Shown here: positions 5,448 to 17,828 of the stretch, one piece after another | Layout of the letters: every line of letters begins with the position of its first letter | Numbering within the stretch: position 1 is the stretch's first letter | Origin: a virus | Taxonomy: Duplodnaviria; Heunggongvirae; Uroviricota; Caudoviricetes | Direction: 5' to 3' (one strand) | Length of the DNA: 19,805 nucleotides | Virus record (IMG/VR): IMGVR_UViG_2731957841_000001 | Coordinates: 1 to 19,805 of that record | The notes under the pieces: model-generated | The model's database searches: none | What the model was told of the DNA's origin: nothing | What the model saw: only the letters and a program-made list of their open reading frames with translations | Program-made: the position numbers and the translations under genes

Positions 5448-5674
5448 TGGCTGATGCAATGGATCTCGTACAGCAGCGCGTTGAAGAAGAACGCCAGCGC
5501 CATATCCGTGCTGCCCGTGCCAAAACACCGGGCGTGTCTCGCGTGCTTTGTATTGAATGTGAAGCGCCAATTCCGCCAGCACGCCGCCGCGCCATTCCTG
5601 GAGTGCAGCTTTGCATTACCTGCCAGGAAATCGCAGAGCTGAAAGGCAAACATTACAACGGAGGTGCTGTATGA
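5447..5674 (+). CDS. TraR/DksA-family C4 zinc-finger protein
   Basis: 75 aa with CIECEAP...CITCQ (C-x2-C ... C-x2-C), typical of the small TraR-like proteins in P2-family early operons. Confidence 0.65.
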   Translation: MADAMDLVQQRVEEERQRHIRAARAKTPGVSRVLCIECEAPIPPARRRAIPGVQLCITCQEIAELKGKHYNGGAV

Positions 5675-6528
5675 GCACCATCCTGAAATGGGCGGGTAAT
5701 AAAACCGCCATTATGTCCGAACTGAAAAAATACCTTCCTGCTGGCCCGCGACTGGTTGAACCTTTCGCGGGTTCTTGTGCTGTGATGATGGCGACGGATT
5801 ACCCCAGCTATCTGGTTGCGGATATTAATCCTGATTTAATCAACCTCTATAAAAAGATTGCCGCTGATTGCGAAGCGTTTATATCTCGTGCCAGAGTTTT
5901 ATTTGAGGAAGCAAACAGTGAGCTGGCTTATTACAACATAAGACAGGAGTTTAATTACTCAACTGAAATTACTGATTTCATGAAGGCGATATATTTCCTG
6001 TATCTCAATCGTCACGGTTACCGTGGTTTATGTCGCTATAACAAGAGCGGGCATTTCAACATTCCCTACGGTAATTATAAAAATCCGTATTTCCCTGAAA
6101 AAGAAATTCGCGCATTTGCAGAGAAAGCCCCGCGGGCAACGTTTATCTGCGCCAGCTTTGATGAAACGCTGGCGATGTTGAAGGCGGGGGATGTGGTGTA
6201 TTGCGATCCGCCGTATGACGGTACGTTTTCCGGCTATCACACTGATGGTTTCACTGAAGATGACCAGTATCACCTGGCATCCGTTCTTGAACATCGGTCA
6301 TCAGAAGGTCATCCGGTCATTGTTTCTAACAGTGACACATCCCTGATTCGTTCGCTGTATCGCAATTTCACTCACCACTACATCAAGGCAAAACGCAGCA
6401 TCGGCGTGTCGGCTGGCGAGAGTAAATCTGCAACAGAAATCATTGCTGTTTCCGGGGCGCGCTGCTGGGTGGGATTTGATCCTTCGCGTGGCGTGGATAG
6501 TTCTGCTGTGTACGAGGTGCGTGTATGA
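5671..6528 (+). CDS. dam: DNA N6-adenine methyltransferase (Dam-like)
   Basis: Start at ATG 5671 (GGAGG RBS). N-terminal ILKWAGNK and PFAGSCAV (AdoMet-binding motif I) plus the catalytic DPPY motif ([10 protein letters not shown]). Stop overlaps the A start (ATGA). Confidence 0.8.
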
Positions 6529-8939
6529 GTCATGCCGATATGAGCGACTCTAGCGGCTTTAACGAGGCCGCTGCAGCATTTTCATGGAACGGCCCGAAAA
6601 AGGCCATAAACCCTTATCTGGACCCGGCGGAAGTTGCGCCGGTTTCTGCGCTTTCAAACCTGATCACTCTGTATGCTGCCGATAACGAGCAGGAACAGCT
6701 GCGCCGCGAGGAATTGAGTGAACAGGTCTGGGAGCGTTATTTCTTTAATGAATCCCGTGATCCTGTCCAGCGCGAAATGGAGCAGGATAAGCTCATTAGT
6801 CGGGCAAAGCTGGCGCATGAGCAGCAGCGTTTTAACCCGGACATGGTCATTCTGGCGGACGTCAGCGCCCAGCCCACCCACATCAGCAAGCCGCTGATGC
6901 AACGTATCGAATACTTCAGCAGCCTGGGCAGGCCAAAGGCTTATTCCCGCTATTTGCGTGAGACGATTAAGCCATGTCTGGAGCGACTGGATTGTGTACG
7001 CGACAGTCAGCTATCTACTTCTTTCCGTTTTATGGCAAGCCATCAAGGGCTGGAGGGCCTGCTGATCCTGCCTGAAATGAGTCAGGATCAGGTGAAACGC
7101 CTGTCCACCCTGGTAGCTGCGCATATGAGCATGTGTCTTGAGGCCGCTTGTGGTGATTTGTATACCAACGATGACGTAAAGCCAGAAGAAATCCGCAAGA
7201 CATGGGAAAAGGTGGCAGCGGAAACCCTGCGTCTGGATGTTATCCCGCCTGCGTTTGAGAAACTTCGTCGGAAAAGAAACCGCCGCAAACCTGTGCCCTA
7301 TGAACTCATACCGGGTTCGCTGGCACGTATGCTTTGCGCCGACTGGTGGTATCGAAAATTGTGGAAGATGCGTTGCGAATGGCGGGAAGAGCAGTTGCGT
7401 GCTGTCTGTCTGGTCAGCAAAAAAGCATCTCCCTATGTCAGCTATGAAGCCGTGATGCATAAACGTGAGCAGCGCCGCAAGTCGCTGGAGTTTTTCCGTT
7501 CTCATGAACTGGTGAACGAAGACGGAGACACGCTGGATATGGAAGATGTGGTAAACGCCAGCAGCAGCAACCCGGCACATCGCCGCAATGAGATGATGGC
7601 CTGCGTTAAAGGTCTGGAGCTTATCGCGGAAATGCGCGGTGACTGCGCCGTTTTCTACACCATCACATGTCCGTCACGTTTCCATTCCACGCTCAATAAC
7701 GGCAGGCCCAACCCGACCTGGACAAATGCGACGGTAAGACAAAGCAGCGATTATCTGGTCGGCATGTTTGCTGCATTTCGTAAGGCGATGCACAAAACCG
7801 GGTTGCGCTGGTATGGCGTACGGGTGGCTGAGCCGCACCATGACGGTACTGTGCACTGGCATCTCATGTGTTTCATGCGCAAAAAAGACCGCCGCGCCAT
7901 TACTGCATTGTTGCGTAAGTTTGCCATCCGTGAAGACCGCGAGGAGCTGGGCAATAACACGGGCCCACGCTTTAAGTCTGAGCTGATAAACCCACGCAAA
8001 GGAACGCCGACAAGCTACATCGCAAAATACATCAGTAAGAACATTGACGGGCGTGGTCTGGCTGGCGAGATCAGCAAGGAAACGGGTAAATCCCTGCGTG
8101 ATAACGCCGAATACGTTAATGCCTGGGCGTCTCTGCATCGTGTTCAGCAGTTCCGCTTCTTTGGTATTCCGGGGCGCCAGGCTTACCGTGAACTGCGATT
8201 GCTGGCTGGTCAGGCGGCAAGACAACAGGGTGACAAAAAAGCAGGTGCGCCGGTACTGGATGATCCGCGTCTTGATGCCATCCTGGCTGCTGCTGATGCT
8301 GGTTGTTTTGCCACCTACATCATGAAGCAGGGCGGCGTACTGGTTCCCCGCAAATATCACCTTATCAGAACAGCTTATGAAATTAACGAAGAGCCGACTG
8401 CCTATGGCGATCACGGTATTCGTATTTATGGCATCTGGTCACCCATTTCAGAGGGCAAGATCTGCACTCATGCAGTGAAGTGGAAAATGGTTCGTAAGGC
8501 CGTTGACGTTCAGGAGGCGGTAGCCGACCAGGGCGCTTGCGCCCCTTGGACTCGTGGCAATAACTGTCCCCTTGCTGAAAATTTGTACCAACAAGGGAAA
8601 GACAAATCAGCTGATGGGGGCTCCAGAACGGACATTACCCGCATGGATGACAAGGAATTGCACGATTACCTGCACAGTATGAGCAAAAAAGATCGCCGGG
8701 AGCTGGCAGCAAGGTTGCGCTTGGTGAAACCGAAACGGCGTAAAGACTACAAACAGCGAATTACAGATCATCAGCATCAGCAGCTCGTCTATGAACTGAA
8801 GTCCAGAGGATTTGATGGCAGCGAGAAAGAAGTCGATTTGCTCCTTCGCGGTGGCAGTATTCCGTCAGGAGCAGGCTTGCGTATCTTCTATCGGAACCAG
8901 CGTTTGCGGGAAGATGATAAGTGGCGGAACCTGTATTAA
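6525..8939 (+). CDS. A: Rolling-circle replication initiator (P2 gene A-like HUH endonuclease)
   Basis: 804 aa; HUH-type motif ([10 protein letters not shown]) and paired active-site tyrosines ([10 protein letters not shown]); size and position match P2/186 gene A. Confidence 0.85.
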
Positions 8940-9030: not shown

Positions 9031-9050
9031 ATACTGTAAATATAAACAGT
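9031..9050 (+). promoter_or_regulatory. LexA (SOS) box TACTGTAAATATAAACAGTG overlapping a promoter (-35 TTTACA 9008..9013, -10 TATACT 9029..9034)
   Basis: Perfect CTGT-N8-ACAG with an AT-rich centre, directly upstream of the small ORF and DinI-like operon. Confidence 0.6.
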
Positions 9051-9092
9051 GGTTATGTATACAGCATTTCTTGTGGTGTCATAGGAGGAAAG

Positions 9093-9281
9093 ATGCAGGA
9101 CTATTTTTTGGAGTCTTTGAAGCTCCAGCGCATTGATTTTTTTCTTAAGCTTGTAGCGGCTAGTGAGTGTAGTGATGAAGAGAAGGGGCTGGCTTTGCAG
9201 TGGGTTTCTGAACTAACAGATGAACTCATGGCAAAAATCAGAACCCACGAATACAACCGCTCAATGGATGTCATCAGTTGA
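9093..9281 (+). CDS. Small hypothetical protein (62 aa) in the position of a 186 Tum-type antirepressor
   Basis: AGGAGG RBS 4-5 nt upstream of ATG 9093. The longer track ORF starting at 8991 is rejected because the promoter and LexA box lie inside it. Confidence 0.45.
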   Translation: MQDYFLESLKLQRIDFFLKLVAASECSDEEKGLALQWVSELTDELMAKIRTHEYNRSMDVIS

Positions 9282-9291
9282 GGTGACTTTT

Positions 9292-9525
9292 ATGCGCATT
9301 GAAATAATGATCGATAAAGAGCAGAAGATTAGCCAGTCTATCCTGGACGCCCTTGAATCCGAGCTTTACCGCAATCTGCGCCCCCTGTATCCCAAAACGG
9401 TAATTCGTATCCGCAAAGGTAGCTCTAACGGTGTGGAACTGACCGGACTGCAACTGGACGAAGAAAGAAAACAAGTGATGAAAATTATGCAGAAGGTGTG
9501 GGAAGACGACAGCTGGCTGCATTAA
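9292..9525 (+). CDS. DinI-family protein
   Basis: MRIEIMIDKEQ...ILDALESELYRNL...VWEDDSWL aligns along its length with E. coli DinI as I recall it (MRIEVTIAK...IDALAGELSRRI...TWESADDWF). GAGGTGA RBS. Confidence 0.8.
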   Translation: MRIEIMIDKEQKISQSILDALESELYRNLRPLYPKTVIRIRKGSSNGVELTGLQLDEERKQVMKIMQKVWEDDSWLH

Positions 9526-9527
9526 GA

Positions 9528-9570
9528 AACGTTGCTGGCGTCTGAACTTGCTTCTGACGTCAGCAACGTT
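9528..9570. terminator. Long hairpin (15-bp stem AACGTTGCTGGCGTC / GACGTCAGCAACGTT, 13-nt loop) between convergent genes
   Basis: Inverted repeat read from the sequence, 2 nt after the DinI-like stop; a U-rich tract follows only on the minus-strand transcript. Confidence 0.45.
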
Positions 9571-9791
9571 GAACAACTAGTTTAGTGGGGCATTAGTCAT
9601 GGGGTAAAATACAGTAACCATTATTTTCACTTCCGCTCAGATTTAACCGAACGTTAGTTTTGCTACGTATGATGGGCTGCAAATTACCTTTTGGGATTTG
9701 TGATAGATACGAAAATCCTATTAGATGCTTGTTAGACCGGAAGCGCCACTTCGAACGAAAAGTAATGGCCACTTATGCCGGTTTAAAAGCC

Positions 9792-10322
9792 TTAACCTTG
9801 TATAGTTATTTGAATATTTTCTTCATTGACACCAAAGTATAGGGCTAGCCCTGCTTTTGCCTCCTGAAGTGTTAACGGCTTAACTACATTTTCTTCTTCT
9901 TCTTCGTACTCATCACCCGCTTGATCGACAATCGAATTAGTCGGGGTTAATTTTGGAAGAGCTTTAAATTCCAACTTGTCAGCCTCAATGCCAATGTCTT
10001 TGAGGTTGCGATAAGAAACGGGATTCCGATTGCCATCCCATTGTCCTGGGATGTCAATTTCAGCATAAGAATTGATGTTTATGATCCAGCGTTTAGGGTT
10101 TTCTGGAGCCCTGCTTACTCCCGAGATTCGACCGATCATAAAAGCATGATGATGTTTTGCTTCTTGTGATCCCCAGTCCTTTCTCGAATTTTGTACACAA
10201 ACTAAATATTCGTGCTTAGCTGCATGGCTGGCGTCAAGTCTCCATGCTTGGCTTCCCCCTGTGTTCAAAATCTCTGTTAAACCACGAGCAGTAAGTACAG
10301 TAATACAGTTGGTAGTAGCCAT
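9792..10322 (-). CDS. Hypothetical 176-aa protein, opposite-strand orphan in the cargo interval
   Basis: Long AT-rich ORF with a His-rich patch (KHHHAF), a WDGNRN motif and an acidic linker (DEYEEEEEN). No family recognised. Confidence 0.55.
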   Translation of the reverse strand: MATTNCITVLTARGLTEILNTGGSQAWRLDASHAAKHEYLVCVQNSRKDWGSQEAKHHHAFMIGRISGVSRAPENPKRWIININSYAEIDIPGQWDGNRNPVSYRNLKDIGIEADKLEFKALPKLTPTNSIVDQAGDEYEEEEENVVKPLTLQEAKAGLALYFGVNEENIQITIQG

Positions 10323-10637
10323 TGAATTGTGACCCCGTCTTTTTTAGAGAAATACTATTGATGAATGTAGTTTACGTATTTTTTTATTGAGTAGTCAAGT
10401 TAGTATTCTGCTCGTTATTGGCTGTTTTTTGAGTGTTGTGAGTTAGTACTTTGTGTAGTACCTCTTGGTTTATGAGGGTTAAATCTAAGTTATGACAAAG
10501 GGAGGCAGGGGGAACGCGCAGCGCAAGGTGTACAGGAGGCCATAAGGACTCACTTGAAGTAAGAAAAGATCGATAAAGCAACAATGCATGTCTATGCCGC
10601 ATGAATTCGCATGATCGTTTGAGGATCGTTTTAGCTG

Positions 10638-10667
10638 AGGCCCGCTAGGAATGGCGGGCTTTTGTTT
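10638..10667 (+). terminator. Rho-independent terminator-like hairpin (GCCCGC / GCGGGC stem, 8-nt loop) followed by TTTTGTTT
   Basis: Read from the sequence; no plus-strand gene lies upstream within about 1 kb. Confidence 0.45.
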
Positions 10668-10708
10668 ATGTCATGCAAGTGCATGAAAACCACTACATAA
10701 AGCGGGCA

Positions 10709-10727
10709 GGCGTGGCGGGGATACGAG
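10709..10727. other. cos-like motif GGCGTGGCGGGGATACGAG
   Basis: First 13 nt match the 186 cohesive end as I recall it (GGCGTGGCGGGGAAAGCAT; P2 is GGCGAGGCGGGGAAAGCAC). It is a GC-rich island in AT-rich spacer between the A-side cargo and Q. Confidence 0.35.
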
Positions 10728-10764
10728 CGCGCGCTGGGAGGTATAAGAATGAAGTACAATTAAC

Positions 10765-10792
10765 TTCACTTTGTTGAGTAAAATGCTATAAG
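10765..10792 (+). promoter_or_regulatory. Candidate sigma70 promoter for the OLD-like gene (-35 TTCACT, 16-bp spacer, -10 TATAAG)
   Basis: Hexamers read from the sequence about 70 bp upstream of ATG 10859; weak match, unverified. Confidence 0.25.
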
Positions 10793-10858
10793 AATAATGC
10801 AAATTATTGAGTCCCATTAGTTCAAAACTTAGGGATATCTTATGTGAAAGGAGGTTAT

Positions 10859-12544
10859 ATGTTAGATAAATTGATTTTTAATTCAGGAAGTAATCCAACA
10901 TCTAAATCTTCATTATCGGTTGACTTGACTCCATTGACAATTTTTGTGGGGCCGAATAATAGTGGTAAATCTAGAGCTTTAATCGATATAGAAAATCAAC
11001 TGACAACCCGAAATGCAGCGCAGGGAGAAGTAATAAAACAGATATTAATCAAACCACTTTCTGAGGATGAAGCAAAAAAGGAAATTGAATCTTTACAAGT
11101 TGAGCCAAACCAGGATGAAAAGCATGCGGGGCATGTTGTTTTATCTAGGCTAAACCTCCGTGGTGAAGGAATATCTAGGATTCTAGTGTATTTGGATGGA
11201 ATGTTAAGAGAATTCCAGCAACCCAATGAATTCAATCGGGAGCATCTATATCAATATTACTCGTTGCTGACTCTAAGGTTGGATGGTAGAAGTCGACTTT
11301 CCTTAACTTCAAGTCAAGGTTCATCCGATTTACAAGGAGAACCTACGAATAACCTTTCATTTCTTTTTAAAAATAATAAAGCAAGGATGGAGCTAAGAGA
11401 TATCGTTTTTGATGCTTTCGGGAAGTATCTTGTTATTGATCCAACAAATATAGGTTATCTTAGAATTCGTCTTTCTGAGCGCGCTCCTGAGACTGAACAA
11501 GAAGAAAGAGGTTGGGATGAAAAGTCAGTGCTTTTTCATTCAAAAGCGTCATTGATTACAGAGGCTAGCGATGGTGTTAATGCTTTTGTTGGGATGATGA
11601 TTTCGCTGATAGTTGGCTCACCAAAGGTGACTCTAATTGATGAGCCGGAAGCTTTTTTACATCCATCCTTATGCTCAAAGTTAGGAAAGGAAATATCTAG
11701 GATTAGTGCTCATAGTAATAAAAATGTGTTTATTTCAACGCATAGCGCTAATTTTTTAATGGGTTGTGTTCAAGGTAAAGTGCCATTGAATATAGTTAGG
11801 CTTACTTTTGATGGTAAATCTGGTACGTCTAGATTACTAACAAAGGAACAATTGACGCCGCTCATGAGAAATCCGTTATTAAGATCTATTGGTGTGCTAA
11901 ACGCATTGTTTTATAATTACGTTGTCGTTACTGAAGCGGATGCAGATAGGGCATTTTATCAAGAGATTAATGAGCGCTTATTGGCTGCTGGAGATCCTCG
12001 GGGTATTGAGGGATGCCTGTTTTTGAATGCTCAAAACAAACAAACTGTTTGGGATATAGTAAAACCCCTTCGTGAGCTAGGTATTCCCTGCGTTGGAGTG
12101 GTAGATATCGATATATTGAAGGAGGGAGGAGTTGTATGGAAAAAACCAATGCTTGGAGCTTTTTTTCCAGAAATGAAGCATGAAACTTTAGGTTTGGAAA
12201 GACAAAAGCTTTTTCAAGCCTTCAAAAATACGAATAAAAATATGAAGACAGATGGGGGCCTCTCCTTGTTATCGGGTTCAGATAAAACCGCCTGCTCTGA
12301 GTTTTTTAAATCCCTTTCAGATTATGGGGTTTTTGTCGTTCCAACGGGCGAGATCGAGTCTTGGTTGCAAAATCTTGAAATAGGTCGAGGAAAGAATACT
12401 TGGTTAACAAGTATTTTCGAGAAGATGGGGGATGATCCTAATGATGAATCATATGTGAAGCCATCTGAAGGTGATGTTTGGGATTTTATTGGGAATATAA
12501 AGCACTGGTTGGTTAACCCTGAAAGGAAGGGTATTCCCGAGTGA
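10859..12544 (+). CDS. OLD-family nuclease: N-terminal ABC-type ATPase plus C-terminal Toprim domain (P2 Old-like, class 1 arrangement)
   Basis: Start at ATG 10859 (AGGAGG RBS). Walker A (FVGPNNSGKS), signature-like EASDGVNAF, Walker B (VTLIDEPEAFLHP), H-loop (ISTHSA); C-terminal Toprim-like acidic motifs (VVVTEADADRAF, VGVVDIDIL). No adjacent helicase gene. Confidence 0.7.
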   Translation: MLDKLIFNSGSNPTSKSSLSVDLTPLTIFVGPNNSGKSRALIDIENQLTTRNAAQGEVIKQILIKPLSEDEAKKEIESLQVEPNQDEKHAGHVVLSRLNLRGEGISRILVYLDGMLREFQQPNEFNREHLYQYYSLLTLRLDGRSRLSLTSSQGSSDLQGEPTNNLSFLFKNNKARMELRDIVFDAFGKYLVIDPTNIGYLRIRLSERAPETEQEERGWDEKSVLFHSKASLITEASDGVNAFVGMMISLIVGSPKVTLIDEPEAFLHPSLCSKLGKEISRISAHSNKNVFISTHSANFLMGCVQGKVPLNIVRLTFDGKSGTSRLLTKEQLTPLMRNPLLRSIGVLNALFYNYVVVTEADADRAFYQEINERLLAAGDPRGIEGCLFLNAQNKQTVWDIVKPLRELGIPCVGVVDIDILKEGGVVWKKPMLGAFFPEMKHETLGLERQKLFQAFKNTNKNMKTDGGLSLLSGSDKTACSEFFKSLSDYGVFVVPTGEIESWLQNLEIGRGKNTWLTSIFEKMGDDPNDESYVKPSEGDVWDFIGNIKHWLVNPERKGIPE

Positions 12545-12551
12545 GTTTATT

Positions 12552-12573
12552 GAGCCGCTTTAGCGGCTCTTTT
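12552..12573 (+). terminator. Rho-independent terminator (GAGCCGC-TTTA-GCGGCTC followed by TTTT) after the OLD-like gene
   Basis: Hairpin plus T-run 8 nt after the stop codon, in the 36-bp gap before the convergent Q stop. Confidence 0.55.
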
Positions 12574-12580
12574 CATATTC

Positions 12581-13609
12581 CTATGCAAGGTTATATTCAT
12601 TAAATTGCATTATTGGCTCCTTTATCCATTCATTTACTTCTTGAAGCCTTTTTTGCAATGGAATTAGCTCATTACGGACAAAGACCCTGCTGGCTTTCTC
12701 CACATCCCCAAATCCCCCGACATTATTTGGCATTATCCCCATCATTTGTGGCGGCACACGATGCGCAGCCATCATGTCATCCCGGCTCACGTTCTTGATA
12801 TTCAGAAACTCATCCTTCGCCGCGACTTCTGACAACGGGATGATCTGAAGCCCGTCCTTTTTGCCGTTAGGCGAGTACATAAACAGGTTGCGGAAGTTGC
12901 CAGGGCCTTTGGCGCTTTTCATCGCATTGCGGAGGTTGTTCACATCCTCCTGGTTCTGCGCGGCATCGGTCATGTACATGATGAAGCCTGCATGACTGCC
13001 GTTAATGTAATACTTCCGGCGGAACAGCGTGGCGGACTCGTTGAGCAGGGCTGACGGAATGGCAGAAAGATAACCTGGCAGGCCGTAGATCTCCTGGTTG
13101 ATGTCAGGTTCCATCAGATGAAAAATGCTGCCTTTCGTGAACTGATACGGCTGGGTTGTCATACCGTATTGCACAAACCAGTAGGTATCCAGGTCTAACC
13201 CGCGTCGGGTGTATTTTGCCAGCGCAGGCTCAAGGGCTATAACTTCACCGAATCGGTTCGTGCGTTTCTCCAGGTAGGCGTTACCAAATACCAGATAGTC
13301 CTGCACAAAACGCGAAAAAGCCTGTTGGCTGAGCAGCGGATGAGGGATATAGGTACTGGTCAGAATGTTGCACTTTACTGCAATCGGGGAACTGTGATGC
13401 ACGGCAGCCCGGAAGGTGCGCGCCAGTCCGTCAAAACTTACGGGTGGCTCATACCAGCGATCCGTCTGTACGCATTCCACATAGTCCAGCAGTTCGCGGC
13501 GGTCCAGTACAGGAATGGGATCACCAAAGCTGAAAGCTTCGGCTGAAGTTTGATTTTTATGCTGGCTCCGTTTCGTCGCAGCAGCGCGGTTTTTCTTACT
13601 CTTTCCCAT
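12581..13609 (-). CDS. Q: Portal protein (P2 gpQ-like)
   Basis: 342 aa from ATG 13609 (the track starts one codon earlier at TTG); directly downstream of the terminase gene with a TGATG stop/start overlap, as in the P2 PQ operon. Confidence 0.85.
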   Translation of the reverse strand: MGKSKKNRAAATKRSQHKNQTSAEAFSFGDPIPVLDRRELLDYVECVQTDRWYEPPVSFDGLARTFRAAVHHSSPIAVKCNILTSTYIPHPLLSQQAFSRFVQDYLVFGNAYLEKRTNRFGEVIALEPALAKYTRRGLDLDTYWFVQYGMTTQPYQFTKGSIFHLMEPDINQEIYGLPGYLSAIPSALLNESATLFRRKYYINGSHAGFIMYMTDAAQNQEDVNNLRNAMKSAKGPGNFRNLFMYSPNGKKDGLQIIPLSEVAAKDEFLNIKNVSRDDMMAAHRVPPQMMGIMPNNVGGFGDVEKASRVFVRNELIPLQKRLQEVNEWIKEPIMQFNEYNLA

Positions 13610-15375
13610 CAAAAAATCTCCACAATATTGCTGGTATTGGCGGACTCGCCCTGCAGCGGTTCGTTAAACAGTGCGTGCATTGTTGCCCAGGCCAGATCGG
13701 CGTGGCTGGCTTCTTCGCTGCGGCTAGCTTCATAGGTCGGGCGGTTGCCGCTGGCGGTGGTGGCGCGACGGATTGCCATGAATGACTGCGCAATGTCGGT
13801 GTGCCCGGCGTCAAACTCCAGACGGCGGTGGCTGATAATGTCGTAGGCCTTGAGTACCAGGGCGTTTTTAACGTTGGGGTTGTAGACAAACTCCCGGACG
13901 GCAGGAAAGAACGCTTTCACGTTCTCATAAACCCCGTGACCGACGCCTGTCGAGTCGATGCCGATATAGGTCACGTTGTACTGCTCGGTCAGTTTTTTGA
14001 TTGCATCAGCCTGGGCGCGGAAGTCCATCCCGCGCCACTGGTGACGCTCAAGAATGCGAAACTTACCGCCTGGCACGGCTGGCGGTGCCACCACCACGCA
14101 TCCGGCGCTGTCGCCATTCTGCGTACCTTTTGCCGGGTCATAACCGATCCACACCTCGCGCCAGCCAAACGGGCGCAGGGCCAGTGCATGAAAGTCGGTC
14201 CAGACTTCCCAACTGTCCACCATGCACGCCTGCAGCTCGCTGAGCGGAAACACGGATGCGAGATCGTCCACAAACTCGCACATCAGCAGGTTCTGGTATT
14301 CGTCCGGGCTGTACTCCATGCGTAGCTGGTCGAGGTCGAACAGGTTACAGCCGCCGCGCACCGCATCTTCCACGGTGACTATCTGGCGGTATTGCCCGTC
14401 TGCGCACAGCAGGCCGGGGGCCAGATTGCTGTGGGACAGGTCGATGTCCACCTTATCGGCTTTGTTGCGCCCACGGTTGAACAGCGCACCGGACCAGAAC
14501 GGATAAGCACTGTGTGTCAGACTGGATGGCGTGGAAAAATAGGTTTGTCGCCATTTTTTGTGAATAGCCATACCGGAAGCCACTTTGCGCAGCTCCTGGA
14601 ATTTCGGTATCCAGAAATATTCATCCAGATACAGGTTGCCGTGGTAACTCTGGGCCGTGCGGGCATTGGTGCCGAGGAAGTAAAGCGTGGCCCCGTTAGG
14701 AAGCACCATCGGATCGCCTTTCAGCTCCACCTCCACTTCTTTGGCAAAGTCGATGATGTACTGTTTAAAGACGTGGGCCTGAGCCTTGCTGGCAGAAAGG
14801 AAAATCTGGTTACGCCCGGTCAGCAGGGCGTCAATCAGGGCTTCACGGGCAAAGTAAAAGGTCGCGCCGATCTGGCGTGACTTCAGCAGGTTGCGGATGC
14901 GGTTGGTTTTTCCGGCTTCCCACCAGTGGCGCTGGTAGTTGAACATAGAGGAATGGAAGATTTCTTCCAGTTTCTCAATCTGTTCATCGGTGAAAACATT
15001 CTTTTCCGGCTGACGACGTGGGCCTTTGTTGCGGTTGGCAACGTTAGGGTTTAAGTCGGCTTCGTTGCCGCCATTGTTAAACTTGCCGATCCGCGCGTGG
15101 CGCTCAGACTGGCGTGCCAGCAGGTCAATTTCTTTGAAATCTTTCCCTTCTTTGTGCTCCTTCATAATGAGCTGGCAGTAGCGTGCGGCGGTGGTGAGCT
15201 GCATCTGATCCAGCGGCCCATAGTCACCCCACTTGTCGCGTTTTTTCCAGCTGTGAACGGTTGCAACTTTCTCGCCCAGCATTTCAGCAATGCGGGCGAC
15301 GCGGTATCCCTGAAAGTACAGCAGCATGGCCTGCCGACGGGGATCGAGATCTGCGGGTGTCAGTGTGGTGTTCAT
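13609..15375 (-). CDS. P: Terminase large (ATPase) subunit (P2 gpP-like)
   Basis: 588 aa; N-terminus (LDPRRQAMLLYFQGYRVARIAEMLG...HSWKKRDKW) and size match P2 gpP; followed by Q on the same strand. Confidence 0.85.
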   Translation of the reverse strand: MNTTLTPADLDPRRQAMLLYFQGYRVARIAEMLGEKVATVHSWKKRDKWGDYGPLDQMQLTTAARYCQLIMKEHKEGKDFKEIDLLARQSERHARIGKFNNGGNEADLNPNVANRNKGPRRQPEKNVFTDEQIEKLEEIFHSSMFNYQRHWWEAGKTNRIRNLLKSRQIGATFYFAREALIDALLTGRNQIFLSASKAQAHVFKQYIIDFAKEVEVELKGDPMVLPNGATLYFLGTNARTAQSYHGNLYLDEYFWIPKFQELRKVASGMAIHKKWRQTYFSTPSSLTHSAYPFWSGALFNRGRNKADKVDIDLSHSNLAPGLLCADGQYRQIVTVEDAVRGGCNLFDLDQLRMEYSPDEYQNLLMCEFVDDLASVFPLSELQACMVDSWEVWTDFHALALRPFGWREVWIGYDPAKGTQNGDSAGCVVVAPPAVPGGKFRILERHQWRGMDFRAQADAIKKLTEQYNVTYIGIDSTGVGHGVYENVKAFFPAVREFVYNPNVKNALVLKAYDIISHRRLEFDAGHTDIAQSFMAIRRATTASGNRPTYEASRSEEASHADLAWATMHALFNEPLQGESANTSNIVEIF

Positions 15376-15424: not shown

Positions 15425-15943
15425 GTGGTTGAAGGACTTTCAGTTGCGGGGCCAACTGCAGCTTATGAATTTCATGCCCGAAGCGCCGACGGTCGGGTGG
15501 CGGATGCCAGTGCAACCAGCCCGGCACCTGCAGAGGTGGTGCTGACTGTCCTTAGCCGCGAAGGCGATGGAACTGCAGAAAAAGACCTGCTGGACGTGGT
15601 GGAAAAAGCTCTGAACAGTGAGAACGTCCGCCCGGTGGCTGACCGTCTTACGGTTCGCAGCGCAGAAATCATCCCGTATCGCGTGGAAGCCACCATTTTT
15701 CTCTATCCGGGACCGGAAGCAGAGCCGGTAATGGCAGCGGCAAAAGCCAGTCTGCAGAAGTACATTGCCAGCCAGACGAGGCTTGGTCGGGATATTCGCC
15801 GTAGCGCCATCTTTGCTGCTCTGCATGTTGAGGGTGTTCAACGTGTGGAACTGGCTTCTCCGCTGGCGGATGTGGTCCTGAACAAAACACAGGCGGCATC
15901 ATGTACGCAGTGGAGCGTAACCAACGGAGGAACGGATGAATAG
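15425..15943 (+). pseudogene. J: Baseplate protein J, C-terminal fragment only
   Basis: Translation resembles the C-terminal part of P2-type gpJ (RPVADRLTVRSAEIIPYRVEATIFLYPG...IFAALHVEGVQRVEL), and its stop overlaps the next start as at the P2 J/I junction. It begins about 50 bp after the P start codon, so O-N-M-L-lysis-R-S-V-W and the J N-terminus are absent. Confidence 0.6.
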
Positions 15944-17828
15944 TCTGCTGCCACCGGGTTCAACTTCACTGGAGCGCCGACTGGCGCAAACCTGTAGCGG
16001 GATTTCTGATTTGCAGGTGCCGCTGCGTGACTTGTGGAATCCGGCTATCCAGCGTGTGCTGGAGAAGGTGAACGCACTGCCGCAGGACAAGCGTCTGTCT
16101 GCCATGACCATGTTGTTTGGTAAAGAGTTTGGCGATGACGCGGCGAAACTGGCAAACAACCTGCCGGAACTACAGCGCCAGCTAAAACTGACAGCGGGCA
16201 ATGATGCGCTCGGTTCCATGCAGAAAGAATCCGACATCAACAAGGACTCACTTTCTGCTCAGTGGTTGCTGGTTAAAACCGGAGCGCAGAATACCTTCAG
16301 CAGCCTGGGCGAAACGCTGCGCCAGCCGCTGATGGATATTCTGTACACGGTGAAAAGCGTTACGGGAGCGTTGCGTCGCTGGGTGGAAGCTAACCCGGAA
16401 CTGACGGGCACACTGATGAAAGTAGCCGCTATTGTGGCTGCGGTTACCGTCGGCCTCGGCACCTTGGCTGTGGCGCTGGCTGCAGTGCTGGGGCCGCTGG
16501 CAGTCATCCGTCTGGGATTCTCTGTGCTGGGCATCAAAACGTTACCTTCCGTTACGGCAGCAGTAACACGAACCAGCAGCGCGTTGTCCTGGCTGGCTGG
16601 CGCACCACTGGCACTGCTGCGACACGGGCTTGCTTTATCGGGTAACGCAGCGGGTTTACTTACTGCGCCGTTGTCGTCTTTGCGCCGTACGGCATCACTG
16701 ACGGGAAATGTCCTGAAAACTGTTGCAGGTGCGCCGGTTGCACTTTTGCGGTCTGGATTATCCGGTTTACGTGCGGTTGCTGTGATGTTTATGAATCCTC
16801 TGGCGGTACTGCGCGGTGGACTGACCGCCGCAGGTACGGTGCAGCGAGTACTGGCATCTGGTCCACTGGCGATGCTGCGCGTTGCCCTGTATGCCATATC
16901 TGGTCTGTTAGGTGCTCTGCTCAGTCCGATAGGTCTAGTGGTTACTGCACTGGCAGGCGTGGCGCTGGTTGTCTGGAAATACTGGCAACCCATCACCGCA
17001 TTTCTCGGTGGCGTGGTGGAGGGATTCAAAGCGGCGGCAGGTCCCGTCAGTGCCGCATTCGAACCACTTAAGCCTGTGTTCCAGTGGATTGGCGACAAAG
17101 TGCAGGCGCTGTGGGGCTGGTTTACTGACCTGCTGACGCCCGTTAAGTCGACCTCTGCCGAACTGCAGAGTGCAGCGGCAATGGGGCGACGATTCGGGGA
17201 GGCTCTGGCGGAAGGGCTGAATATGGTCATGCATCCGCTGGACTCCCTGAAATCCGGCGTTTCCTGGTTGCTGGAGAAACTCGGCATTGTCAGTAAAGAG
17301 GCCGCAAAGGCAAAACTACCGGAAAGCGTGACGCGTCAGCAACCTGCGACGGTGAATGCAGACGGCAAAGTGATGATGCCATCGGGTGGTTTTCCATCAT
17401 GGGGATATGGCTTTGCGGGGATGTATGACAGCGGCGGGTATATCCCGCGCGGGCAGTTTGGCATCGTCGGTGAAAACGGGCCGGAAATTGTTAACGGCCC
17501 GGCAAATGTGACCAGCCGGAGAAATACAGCTGCACTGGCTGCCGTTGTTGCCGGAATGATGGGCGTTGCTGCCGCGCCAGCAGAGCTTCCACCGTTGCAC
17601 CCTTTGGCACTTCCCGCGAAAGGTGGAGAAGCAATTGTGAGTCGCGCAGCCACTGTGCCGCTCGTTCAACGGATTGAGGCACCGACGCAGATCATCATTC
17701 AGACGCAGCCAGGACAAAGTGCGCAGGATATTGCGCGGGAGGTGGCACGCCAGCTTGATGAACGTGAACGCAGGCTGAAGGCAAAAGCCAGGAGTAACTA
17801 CAGCGATCAGGGGGGATACGACGCATGA
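15936..17828 (+). CDS. T: Tail tape measure protein, truncated; the first ~37 codons look like the N-terminus of tail protein I (in-frame deletion fusion)
   Basis: N-terminus LLPPGSTSLERRLA...VPLRDLWNP resembles the gpI start, then switches to tape-measure-like sequence with degenerate PLAxLRxGL repeats and the C-terminal MYDSGGYIPRGQFGIVGENGPEIV motif. Stop overlaps the U start (ATGA). Confidence 0.65.
   Translation: MNSLLPPGSTSLERRLAQTCSGISDLQVPLRDLWNPAIQRVLEKVNALPQDKRLSAMTMLFGKEFGDDAAKLANNLPELQRQLKLTAGNDALGSMQKESDINKDSLSAQWLLVKTGAQNTFSSLGETLRQPLMDILYTVKSVTGALRRWVEANPELTGTLMKVAAIVAAVTVGLGTLAVALAAVLGPLAVIRLGFSVLGIKTLPSVTAAVTRTSSALSWLAGAPLALLRHGLALSGNAAGLLTAPLSSLRRTASLTGNVLKTVAGAPVALLRSGLSGLRAVAVMFMNPLAVLRGGLTAAGTVQRVLASGPLAMLRVALYAISGLLGALLSPIGLVVTALAGVALVVWKYWQPITAFLGGVVEGFKAAAGPVSAAFEPLKPVFQWIGDKVQALWGWFTDLLTPVKSTSAELQSAAAMGRRFGEALAEGLNMVMHPLDSLKSGVSWLLEKLGIVSKEAAKAKLPESVTRQQPATVNADGKVMMPSGGFPSWGYGFAGMYDSGGYIPRGQFGIVGENGPEIVNGPANVTSRRNTAALAAVVAGMMGVAAAPAELPPLHPLALPAKGGEAIVSRAATVPLVQRIEAPTQIIIQTQPGQSAQDIAREVARQLDERERRLKAKARSNYSDQGGYDA

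Follow-up and report, generated by a model that had tools for sequence, protein, structure and literature searches.

In P2-like phages, the interval from gpA to gpQ, beside cos, is a recognised hotspot for accessory and defence genes (PMC9122126; Rousset et al. 2022). A core of ~55 bp around the cut is common to P2, P4, and 186, as stated in PMC5694545 and PMC9594776, which cite Ziermann and Calendar (1990), and insertions between cosL and Q are known from PMC5694545 and PMC7826664, both citing Dodd and Egan (1996). At the retron Ec67 and Ec86 slots of 186-related prophages, for which Dodd and Egan (1996) is the work cited, foreign genes take the place of the ~180 bp that otherwise separate the GCGCGC tract of cos from the portal gene's 3' end. 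Ralstonia phage RSY1 is reported to carry extra ORFs between cosL and Q.

In phage P2, old and tin occupy the A side, with transcription pointing away from cos, and the interval from cos to Q is empty. In coliphage 186 and Salmonella phage PSP3 (Eganvirus), cos and the portal gene are ~180–195 bp apart with no gene in between; their LexA-controlled tum (dinI-like) operon is read toward cos, with termination ahead of the site, the 186 record annotating terminators t95a and t95b between tum and cos. The Fels-2-like phages SEN8, RE-2010, and SopEPhi (Felsduovirus) carry cargo genes on both sides of cos. A cos site with a built-in hairpin and swappable accessory genes on either side is an arrangement already described for P2/Fels-2-type phages, and an element of this kind is textbook.

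Here, we describe a spacer within a 19,805-nt stretch of viral DNA (the window, taken as a whole) that very probably contains, at 10585–10734, the cos packaging site of a Fels-2-type P2-family (Peduoviridae) E. coli prophage. An earlier note on this DNA had pointed to a terminator-like hairpin and a cos-like motif in the same spacer.

A conserved cos element within a non-coding spacer

The spacer spans 10323–10858, as the earlier note had it, because the OLD-like gene most likely starts at the ATG at 10859, the PGAP call, rather than at the GTG at 10844. PGAP annotates nothing between the 176-aa and nuclease genes in an identical E. coli genome, in line with the earlier view that the spacer holds no convincing ORF. 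Two candidate ORFs were rejected: the 72-aa ORF at 10384–10602 on the minus strand has no Pfam or PHROG match, and a small ORF that the phage MLG42 annotation places across its copy of the element meets an in-frame stop in the window.

Within the spacer, BLAST matches to 97–121 Peduoviridae records (~100 phage records) are confined to 10585–10734 and stop sharply on both sides. A 47-sequence alignment places the start of conservation at 10585/10586 and its end at 10734, with the window agreeing with the family at every invariant position. Other E. coli prophages share 10585–12600 at 99.4% identity, their left flank being unrelated. The core pattern, TGCAT-AAAAC...AAGCGGGC followed by the 19-mer and GCGCGC, is near-invariant across 122 cos regions that include P2, 186, and P4-like types, and the window conforms to it. 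The 55-bp core and the TGCAT repeats are common to this site and the P2 (tin/old) cos region.

The gene context is that of a P2-family cos site, which has the replication/SOS region (A, tum/dinI) on one side and, on the other, toward which the left end is directed, the portal gene Q. Upstream of the element are A, tumA, and dinI; downstream, encoded on the opposite strand, are Q and P (Table 1).

Table 1. Features of the window around the cos element, with strand and supporting evidence.
Feature	Position	Strand	Content or evidence
Gene A	6525–8939		
Upstream operon pointing at cos	9034–9525	+	Layout like the 186 p95-tum operon and PSP3 tumA/tumB
LexA box, CTGTAAATATAAACAG	9034–9049	+	Belongs to the upstream operon
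tumA-like ORF	9093–9281	+	PGAP
dinI/tumB-like gene	9292–9525	+	Pfam DinI; PGAP
A-side cargo module	9606–10584	-	176-aa gene and 262-bp upstream region
176-aa gene	9792–10322	-	PHROG 37247, function unknown
Upstream region of A-side module (unconserved left part of spacer)	10323–10584		
Promoter-like site in A-side module	10398–10369		Scan
Conserved cos element, ~150 bp, Fels-2 type	10585–10734	+	No other stretch of the spacer has homologues elsewhere
Three distal (T)GCATG repeats	10585–10590, 10599–10603, 10609–10613	+	10–13 bp apart
GATC (Dam) site pair	10613–10616, 10624–10627	+	Inside the cos element
Terminator-like hairpin	10637–10669	+	Stem core GCCCGCTA/TGGCGGGC, loop GGAA, tail TTTTGTTTAT; scan, folding, 47-homologue alignment
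Proximal CATGCA/TGCATG pair	10671–10685	+	Beside the core
Equivalent of ~55-bp P2/P4 cos core (TGCATGAAAACC ... GCGCGC)	10680–10734	+	Near-invariant in the 122 cos regions compared
19-nt cohesive end GGCGTGGCGGGGATACGAG	10709–10727	+	Record termini, annotated cos features, published SEN8 cos
Q-side cargo module	10735–12580	+	Leader, OLD-like gene, hairpin
AT-rich leader of Q-side module	10735–10858		
OLD-like ATPase/TOPRIM nuclease gene	10859–12544	+	Pfam AAA_15, AAA_21, OLD-like_TOPRIM; PADLOC Old
Terminator-like hairpin after OLD-like gene	12552–12569		Scan, folding
Portal gene Q	12581–13612	-	Pfam Phage_portal
Large terminase gene P	13609–15375	-	Pfam Terminase_6N/6C/Terminase_5

Cohesive end and predicted cleavage sites

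The cohesive end conforms to the GC-rich 19-nt form of the P2 family, GGCG(A/T)GGCGGGGA..., and is identical to that of SEN8 (19/19), with 15/19 positions shared with 186 and PSP3 and 14/19 with P2. Its first 13 nt, GGCGTGGCGGGGA, were identified in the earlier note as a match to the 186 cohesive end, and they are indeed the first 13 nt of the 186 end in record NC_001317. This 13-mer occurs once in the window (10709–10721; 0.03 matches expected in shuffles at ≤1 mismatch), and the 19-mer is likewise unique there. The last 6 nt of the end differ from those of 186 and PSP3.

Similarity continues beyond the cohesive end. The 39 bp before the cut match SEN8 at 36 positions and 186 at 32 (32–33 across 186 and PSP3), the tract of 7 nt after it matches SEN8 at all positions and 186 at six, and 186 and PSP3 share the GCGCGC tract. 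Further upstream, identity to SEN8 is 76/91, hairpin included. The earlier note would have abandoned its reading had P2-family similarity ended with the 13-mer and no transcript ended at the hairpin; the first of these does not hold, because the flanks also match 186 and SEN8. Its proposal that the GC-rich island is cos is borne out by the cohesive-end sequence found there, by the ends of P2-family genome records, which fall at 10708|10709, and by the publication of the same 19-mer as the SEN8 cos (PMC5427200).

Record termini map onto a single boundary, PSP3, SEN8, and EtG ending at the equivalent of 10708 and SEN4 and Smp131 starting at 10709, with several of the starts set by annotation. 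The cos features annotated at bases 1–19 of the PSP3, 186, P2, and SEN8 records align to 10709–10727. Because the SEN8 cos was identified by annotation, the exact cuts are placed by homology to 186, PSP3, and P2, which predicts a top-strand cut 5' of 10709 and a bottom-strand cut after 10727. The present 19-mer is the commonest cos type in the sample, where it is accompanied by 45 distinct flank variants.

Repeats and GATC sites of the cos element

The three distal repeats, also present in 186 and PSP3, are putative binding sites of the small terminase subunit. Their TGCAT motifs stand at fixed positions of approximately -124, -111, and -100 in all cos types among the 122 regions and are also visible in the right ends of P2 and 186. 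Beside the core, ATGCA and TGCAT at approximately -38 and -30 are kept in all cos types of the same set, and the distal-to-proximal spacing is constant across types.

Both sites of the GATC pair are present in 41 of 44 Fels-2-type regions vs none of 31 P2-type regions, and they are kept even where the intervening bases vary. An association test of Dam against GATC was confounded by lineage, with too few informative loci. It is conceivable, though decidedly unlikely, that Fels-2-type cos carries two lineage-specific controls in the spacer separating the putative terminase-binding repeats, the GATC pair and the hairpin, coupling packaging to methylation and transcription. The Dam methylase encoded by these phages might then read the GATC pair, its methylation state gating terminase binding as at P1 pac, and the terminator hairpin would shield the cleavage site from SOS-induced transcription. 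To our knowledge, such coupling has not been described for P2-family cos sites.

Cargo modules on both sides of cos

Both flanks of cos are cargo slots, and their A-side and Q-side modules assort independently in other E. coli prophages. The A-side module occurs as one 979-bp unit in 8 of 5,426 E. coli genomes at 98.5–100% identity, and relatives whose dinI leads directly into cos lack it; the dinI-to-cos distance is 207–208 bp with an empty slot vs 1,187 bp here. Searches of the 176-aa protein against Pfam, PADLOC, NCBIfam, and PDB sequences gave no match, and PHROGs returned only a family without known function.

On the other side, the cos-to-Q distance is 182–210 bp with an empty slot vs 1,875 bp here, and Q-side cargo is present at 26 of the 31 loci of the present cos type. 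The putatively anti-phage OLD-like protein matches Old-family models and is 24% identical to P2 Old (E = 3e-12). Elsewhere, the same A-side module is paired with HipA/HIRAN genes and the same OLD module with other A-side genes. The earlier suggestion of a conserved boundary with exchanged cargo agrees with this recurrence of the flanking modules in other combinations and with the restriction of homology to the cos element, and the coordinates by themselves put the OLD-like gene on the Q side, as that note had proposed.

Cargo that varies among relatives on both sides of cos, with an Old-family nuclease among it, is what characterises the gpA–gpQ hotspot of P2-like phages, where accessory anti-phage genes lie beside cos. 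Unlike P2 old, the OLD-like gene is Q-side and on the other strand. The slots resemble those of SEN8, RE-2010, and SopEPhi in holding genes on both sides, but the cargo differs, the Q-side slot of RE-2010 holding an unrelated 554-aa protein, and the host is E. coli rather than Salmonella. The Q-side insertion also parallels the extra ORFs of RSY1 and the Ec67 and Ec86 insertions, its cargo being an OLD-like nuclease and not a retron.

A hairpin inside the element

The hairpin stem (~10637–10662) comprises 11 pairs, six of them G-C, followed by the T-rich tail TTTTGTTTAT at 10660–10669, and the structure extends from 72 to 40 bp before the cut. Its plus-strand RNA folds at -20.5 kcal/mol (z = -4.4 vs shuffles) and the complementary strand at -12.3 kcal/mol, the plus strand being stronger because of G-U pairs. 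A stable GC-rich stem-loop with a U-rich tract directly 3' has the structural features of an intrinsic terminator, and the plus-strand hairpin with a T-run seen in the earlier note is thereby confirmed. That note had also placed a terminator before cos; hairpin and cos both hold, but the hairpin lies inside the 150-bp element, between the two groups of TGCATG repeats, and not before it.

Across the 47 homologues, the stem is 94.7% paired. Only 2 double changes were counted, against 17 one-sided changes that preserve pairing and 25 unpaired cells, so true covariation is slight. Covariation cannot separate an RNA from a DNA role, because the stem is paired mostly through sequence conservation. 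In the T-run, compared in the alignment as the T's pair with upstream A's in the fold, two T's are invariant and two adjacent positions nearly so; most relatives have only TTTT after the stem. Many cos sites of the 186 and P4 types have, at the equivalent place, a weaker CCAG..CTGGCG palindrome that no T-run follows, 186 itself having a short CGCCAG/CTGGCG palindrome there and its t95b upstream of the TGCAT repeats, unlike the window. P2-type cos sites mostly have no palindrome or hairpin at this position (palindrome in 2/30).

As in 186 and PSP3, a LexA-controlled tum/dinI operon points toward cos. The earlier note had found no plus-strand gene upstream of the hairpin, which is true of the adjacent sequence, the nearest such gene, dinI-like, ending at 9525; the hairpin is an orphan in this copy only. 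Here, the operon ends 1.1 kb upstream of the hairpin, with an opposed gene between them, and in relatives with an empty A-side slot dinI ends ~135 bp before the hairpin and 207–208 bp before the cut. The hairpin therefore looks orphan because the 979-bp module with its opposed gene is inserted between dinI and cos. In MLG42, whose A-side slot is empty, the only structure between dinI and cos is without a T-run, and the site goes unflagged by a simple scan. The hairpin is probably the first T-tailed intrinsic terminator after the tumA/dinI operon.

Alternative readings of the hairpin and of the prophage copy

The hairpin could instead serve the packaging signal chiefly at the level of DNA, for example by bending, by forming a cruciform, or by binding terminase or a host factor, with little or no termination, which we consider unlikely. 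This alternative concerns the role of the hairpin only and is partly compatible with the preferred explanation. It would accord with the position of the hairpin inside the conserved element rather than outside it, with the constant spacing of the repeats, with the short T-run of most relatives, and with the slight covariation of the stem; the palindrome that many 186- and P4-type sites carry without a T-run fits it equally well. A DNA-level role sits less easily with the invariant and near-invariant T positions after the stem and with the 8 kcal/mol by which the plus-strand RNA is the more stable. One-sided changes, moreover, are often G-U compatible on the plus strand, the C-to-T change of the window itself keeping a U-G pair. 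The palindrome is not required by the family terminase in general, because P2-type cos sites mostly do without it. A small regulatory plus-strand RNA made within the spacer and ending at the hairpin, which the earlier note had offered as an alternative, would suit a strong T-tailed hairpin that has no adjacent upstream plus-strand gene in this copy, yet it is most improbable. No plus-strand promoter-like site was found anywhere in 10323–10858, the whole window has no Rfam match at the gathering score, and the only two hits returned for the spacer at E ≤ 1 are to eukaryotic families and attributable to chance. Conservation begins only 52 nt before the stem with the TGCATG repeats, which are common to cos sites without a terminator, and in relatives the hairpin directly follows dinI.

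A different question is whether the site is used in this copy. Outside two internal gaps of 7.3 and 7.4 kb, with junctions at 15429–15431 and 16045–16047, the window is 99.98% identical to the complete E. coli 1297KP prophage. Missing through these gaps are O, N, M, L, the lysis genes, R, S, V, W, part of J, and I through part of T. The large terminase subunit P is in the window, and the small subunit M, missing there, is present in the 1297KP prophage. If the deletions are real, the cos could be used only in trans, because the window is without the small terminase and the capsid genes. The site might thus be intact but idle, a recent relic served at best by a related helper, a possibility we hold only tentatively. 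In its favour, the small terminase, capsid, lysis, and most tail genes are missing through the two gaps, leaving ~19.8 kb against the 33–35 kb genomes of the group. The deletion junction, though, was not found in 5,426 complete E. coli genomes, a representative genome collection, or IMG/VR; the deletions may have arisen naturally, in assembly, or through the way in which the window was produced, and the element still matches every invariant family position. Phage P4 has a cos without a terminase, and an own terminase is not strictly defining for such a site.

Discussion

Taken as one reading, cos identity, packaging by terminase, a terminator hairpin that looks orphan through insertion, and a pivot between cargo slots together form an explanation that we regard as highly probable. 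Judging from the family, terminase, composed of the small subunit gpM and the large subunit gpP, would recognise the ~150-bp element in the replicated phage genome, with the distal and proximal TGCATG repeats as likely contacts. It would nick the top strand 5' of 10709 and the bottom strand after 10727, a stagger of 19 nt, and the resulting linear virion DNA would begin with the OLD-like gene, followed by Q and P; at its other end, the 176-aa gene would precede the 124 bp of cos that lie upstream of the cut. The hairpin sits in a length-constrained spacer between the repeat groups, where it most likely acts as an intrinsic terminator for plus-strand transcripts of the LexA-controlled tumA/dinI operon, and termination there would prevent SOS-induced transcription from reaching the cleavage site and the Q-side cargo.

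Because cos is the only unchangeable stretch in the A-to-Q interval, it forms a fixed pivot between two accessory slots, which would also be the two ends of the linear chromosome. The gpA–gpQ hotspot is on this account really two slots separated by cos, with exact cargo-exchange junctions at 9605/9606, 10584/10585, 10734/10735, and ~12580. The assignment would fix the physical ends of the present phage genome, its main value being for annotation, and would explain the apparently orphan terminator without a new RNA. Cosmids or transducing particles of this cos type could draw on the 150-bp element as a minimal candidate packaging signal, and its TGCATG repeats, GATC pair, and hairpin at fixed spacing could guide the dissection of terminase recognition in the P2 family.

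Lambda cos, with its cosQ-cosN-cosB organisation, R sites, and IHF bend, offers a working analogy only, in that a nicking site is flanked by short repeats with a spacer of fixed length between them. There is no sequence relationship to lambda cos, and, unlike in lambda, the extended recognition region here would lie on the right-end side of the cut. The overhang is 12 nt in lambda vs a predicted 19 nt here.

A cos element in the spacer between two cargo genes

The 536-bp spacer (10323-10858), located between the 176-aa gene and the OLD-like gene, contains no convincing ORF, as the earlier note had claimed: PGAP annotates none, and a 72-aa minus-strand ORF is without family match. The 13-mer GGCGTGGCGGGGA, matched there to the 186 cohesive end, is identical to nt 1-13 of that end in NC_001317 and occurs once in the window, at 10709-10721, with 0.03 matches expected by chance. 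Homology within the spacer is limited to 10585-10734. Searching 50,697 phage records with BLAST yielded 97-121 matching records, every match inside this interval and all from Peduoviridae of Klebsiella, Yersinia, Salmonella, Escherichia and others. Across 47 aligned, mutually distinct homologues, conservation runs from 10585/10586 to 10734, with unrelated sequence beyond.

End-to-end phage records break at a single place in the element, with PSP3, SEN8 and EtG ending at the equivalent of 10708 and SEN4 and Smp131 beginning at the base aligned with 10709. Bases 1-19 of the PSP3, 186, P2 and SEN8 records are annotated as the cohesive end, and the window 19-mer GGCGTGGCGGGGATACGAG (10709-10727) is identical to the cos already in print for SEN8 (PMC5427200). 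Compared with 186, the window matches at 15/19 positions of the cohesive end, 32/39 before the cut and 6/7 after; the corresponding values for SEN8 are 19/19, 36/39 and 7/7. The cut positions predicted for this 19-mer (top strand between 10708 and 10709) rest on homology to 186, PSP3 and P2, the SEN8 site being identified by annotation. Similarity to P2-family cos flanks extends beyond the 13-mer, and the cos reading therefore stands; a chance match of the 13-mer is ruled out by the extended homology together with terminus mapping. The original observation is confirmed, and its interpretation as cos is supported with two refinements; it correctly reads an element whose kind is known, not new.

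Genome context and internal deletions

The window represents an E. coli prophage of the P2/186-like kind. A prophage of strain 1297KP, inserted between ybjL and rcdA, is 99.98% identical to it, two internal gaps excepted. Two blocks present in 1297KP, of 7.3 and 7.4 kb, are missing from the window; the junctions lie at 15429-15431 and 16045-16047, each with a 3-bp overlap. The first block comprises O, N, the small terminase gene M, L, X, the lysis genes, R, S, V, W and the 5' part of J; the second comprises the 3' part of I, followed by H, G, FI, FII, E and the 5' part of T. The element measures ~19.8 kb, far from the 33-35 kb genomes typical of the group. The first junction is absent from 5426 complete E. 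coli genomes, a representative genome collection and IMG/VR. The two gaps may be natural deletions, may stem from assembly or may come from splicing of the window. Should they be genuine deletions, the cos of this copy can act only in trans.

Features of the window and of its cos element (negative positions count upstream from the predicted cut)
Feature	Window position	Position from cut	Strand	Remark
dam gene (DNA adenine methylase)	5611-6528			just upstream of gene A
Replication gene A	6525-8939		+	
LexA box	9034-9049			consensus sequence CTGTAAATATAAACAG; precedes tumA/dinI-like operon
tumA-like ORF and dinI/tumB-like gene	9093-9525		+	
176-aa gene	9792-10322		-	function unknown
Three TGCAT(G) repeats	10585-10590, 10599-10603, 10609-10613	near -124, -111, -100		
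Constant-length spacer				after the three TGCAT(G) repeats, before the ATGCA/TGCAT pair
ATGCA/TGCAT pair	10671-10685	near -38 and -30		
AAAAC...AAGCGGGC core, then 19-mer, then GCGCGC				end of cos element
OLD-like ATPase/TOPRIM gene	10859-12544		+	
Portal gene Q	12581-13612		-	
Large terminase gene P	13609-15375		-	
J fragment	15425-15943			
I'-T' fusion ORF	15936-17828			

Anatomy of the cos element

A set of 122 distinct cos regions, drawn both from IMG/VR and from phage records and aligned gap-free on the cut site, showed the same parts at fixed positions in all cos types: P2, 186, Fels-2 (the type of the window) and P4-like. P2 and 186 carry the same repeats as the window, and the repeated TGCAT motifs are most simply read as putative binding sites of the small terminase subunit. 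The core of the element is the ~55-bp one that PMC5694545 and PMC9594776 attribute to Ziermann & Calendar 1990. Over the cos element of Yersinia phage MLG42 (3017-3160), a 47-aa hypothetical protein (XAF37142.1) is annotated; in the window this frame is interrupted by TAG at codon 16, and the annotation is probably spurious.

Two GATC sites lie inside the window cos, at 10613-10616 and 10624-10627. This pair is present in 41/44 Fels-2-type regions versus 0/31 P2-type regions, is kept even where the intervening bases differ, and accompanies a Dam gene encoded just upstream of gene A in phages of the Fels-2 cos type, an association confounded by lineage. By analogy with the P1 pac site, methylation control of packaging through the pair is possible.

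A T-tailed hairpin inside the packaging signal

The hairpin with a T-rich tail lies where the earlier note placed it, with a stem at 10637-10662 and a tail extending to 10669. It folds at -20.5 kcal/mol (z = -4.4 versus shuffles), clearly stronger than its complement (-12.3 kcal/mol) because of G-U pairs. The structure proposed as a terminator preceding cos is instead located within cos, where it occupies the spacer of constant length, 72 to 40 bp upstream of the cut. Among 47 Fels-2-type sequences the hairpin is well preserved, with 94.7% pairing in the stem and two invariant T's after it. Its upkeep is mostly sequence conservation: changes in the stem comprise only two double, 17 one-sided keeping the pair and 25 unpaired cells. 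Other cos types often carry a weaker CCAG..CTGGCG palindrome without T-run at the same place, and P2-type sites mostly have no palindrome there.

Three readings of the hairpin were weighed. A small RNA ending at it, the alternative raised earlier, would also account for a T-tailed hairpin without a plus-strand gene upstream, but is unlikely: the spacer has neither a plus-strand promoter-like site nor an Rfam match, and the bases conserved upstream of the stem are the cos repeats. Termination of the SOS operon draws on relatives with an empty A-side slot (the cargo position between dinI and cos), in which 207-208 bp separate the end of dinI from the cut and ~135 bp separate it from the hairpin. 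MLG42, the sole such relative examined in detail, has one structure between dinI and cos, a stem without T-run directly after dinI. Its equivalent in the window, a strong stem at 9528-9570 directly after dinI, also lacks a T-run (-27.8 kcal/mol, z = -5.8), its arms differing from those of MLG42 with pairing kept, and is similar to t95a, a partial terminator of 186. In the 186 record, t95a and t95b are placed between the SOS operon and cos, and the window has a LexA-controlled operon directed toward cos like p95-tum of 186. The dinI spacing in empty slots, the intervening stem without T-run and the LexA-controlled operon therefore make the hairpin most likely the intrinsic terminator, and the first with a T-tail, that follows the SOS operon. 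Insertion of a 979-bp module at 9606-10584 would have parted it from its neighbour dinI. A structural role in packaging, consistent with its position inside cos, may coexist with termination. Only two leads are mildly new: conservation of the GATC pair in the cos type of Dam-encoding phages, and a probable terminator within the packaging signal.

Two cargo slots assort independently across cos

In P2-like phages, the gpA-gpQ interval beside cos has been published as a defence hotspot (Rousset et al. 2022, PMC9122126; also PMC13586616). Foreign genes between cos and the portal gene have been on record since Dodd & Egan 1996 worked on retrons Ec67/Ec86, as cited in PMC5694545 and PMC7826664, and are also described for Ralstonia phage RSY1.

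The A-side module (9606-10584) is found as an intact unit in 8/5426 E. coli genomes, and the left 262 bp of the spacer is the upstream region of its 176-aa gene. The encoded protein belongs to PHROG 37247, of unknown function, without a match in Pfam, PADLOC, NCBIfam or PDB. Taken alone, the coding sequence has nucleotide homologues of 72-77% on plasmids of 5-9 kb, most of them mobilizable, from Klebsiella, Enterobacter, Citrobacter and Rahnella, and the protein has 28% matches in two Brevundimonas jumbo phages. The Q-side module (10735-12580), replacing ~180 bp found between cos and Q in empty relatives, carries the OLD-like gene, assigned by Pfam AAA_15, AAA_21 and OLD-like_TOPRIM and the PADLOC Old model; the protein shares 24% identity with P2 Old. 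Q-side cargo occupies 26/31 loci with the window's cos type versus 4/28 P2-type loci.

The two slots assort independently. In CFSAN061772 and A41, the A-side module and cos are those of the window, with 3 mismatches, and are paired with HipA-domain and HIRAN-domain genes on the Q side; EC11 and others pair the same OLD module with other A-side genes. The stretch 10585-12600 recurs at 99.4% identity in many E. coli genomes with other genes to its left. Between EC11 and the window there are 12 differences in 10598-10695 but a single one in 10696-12700, which therefore places the join behind the window's cargo combination in or next to the cos core. This join could be a homologous exchange in the only invariant stretch. 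It could also stem from the slots being the two ends of the linear chromosome, in which case a single crossover at any backbone position would pair them anew, with the visible join at cos.

Beside the cargo, the last codons of Q (12581-12650) are rich in AT, and their DNA sequence has diverged from that of empty-slot relatives. Alignment with CFSAN061772 resumes only at 12651; the junction of the Q-side exchange therefore seems to fall within the 3' end of Q, not at the Q terminator.
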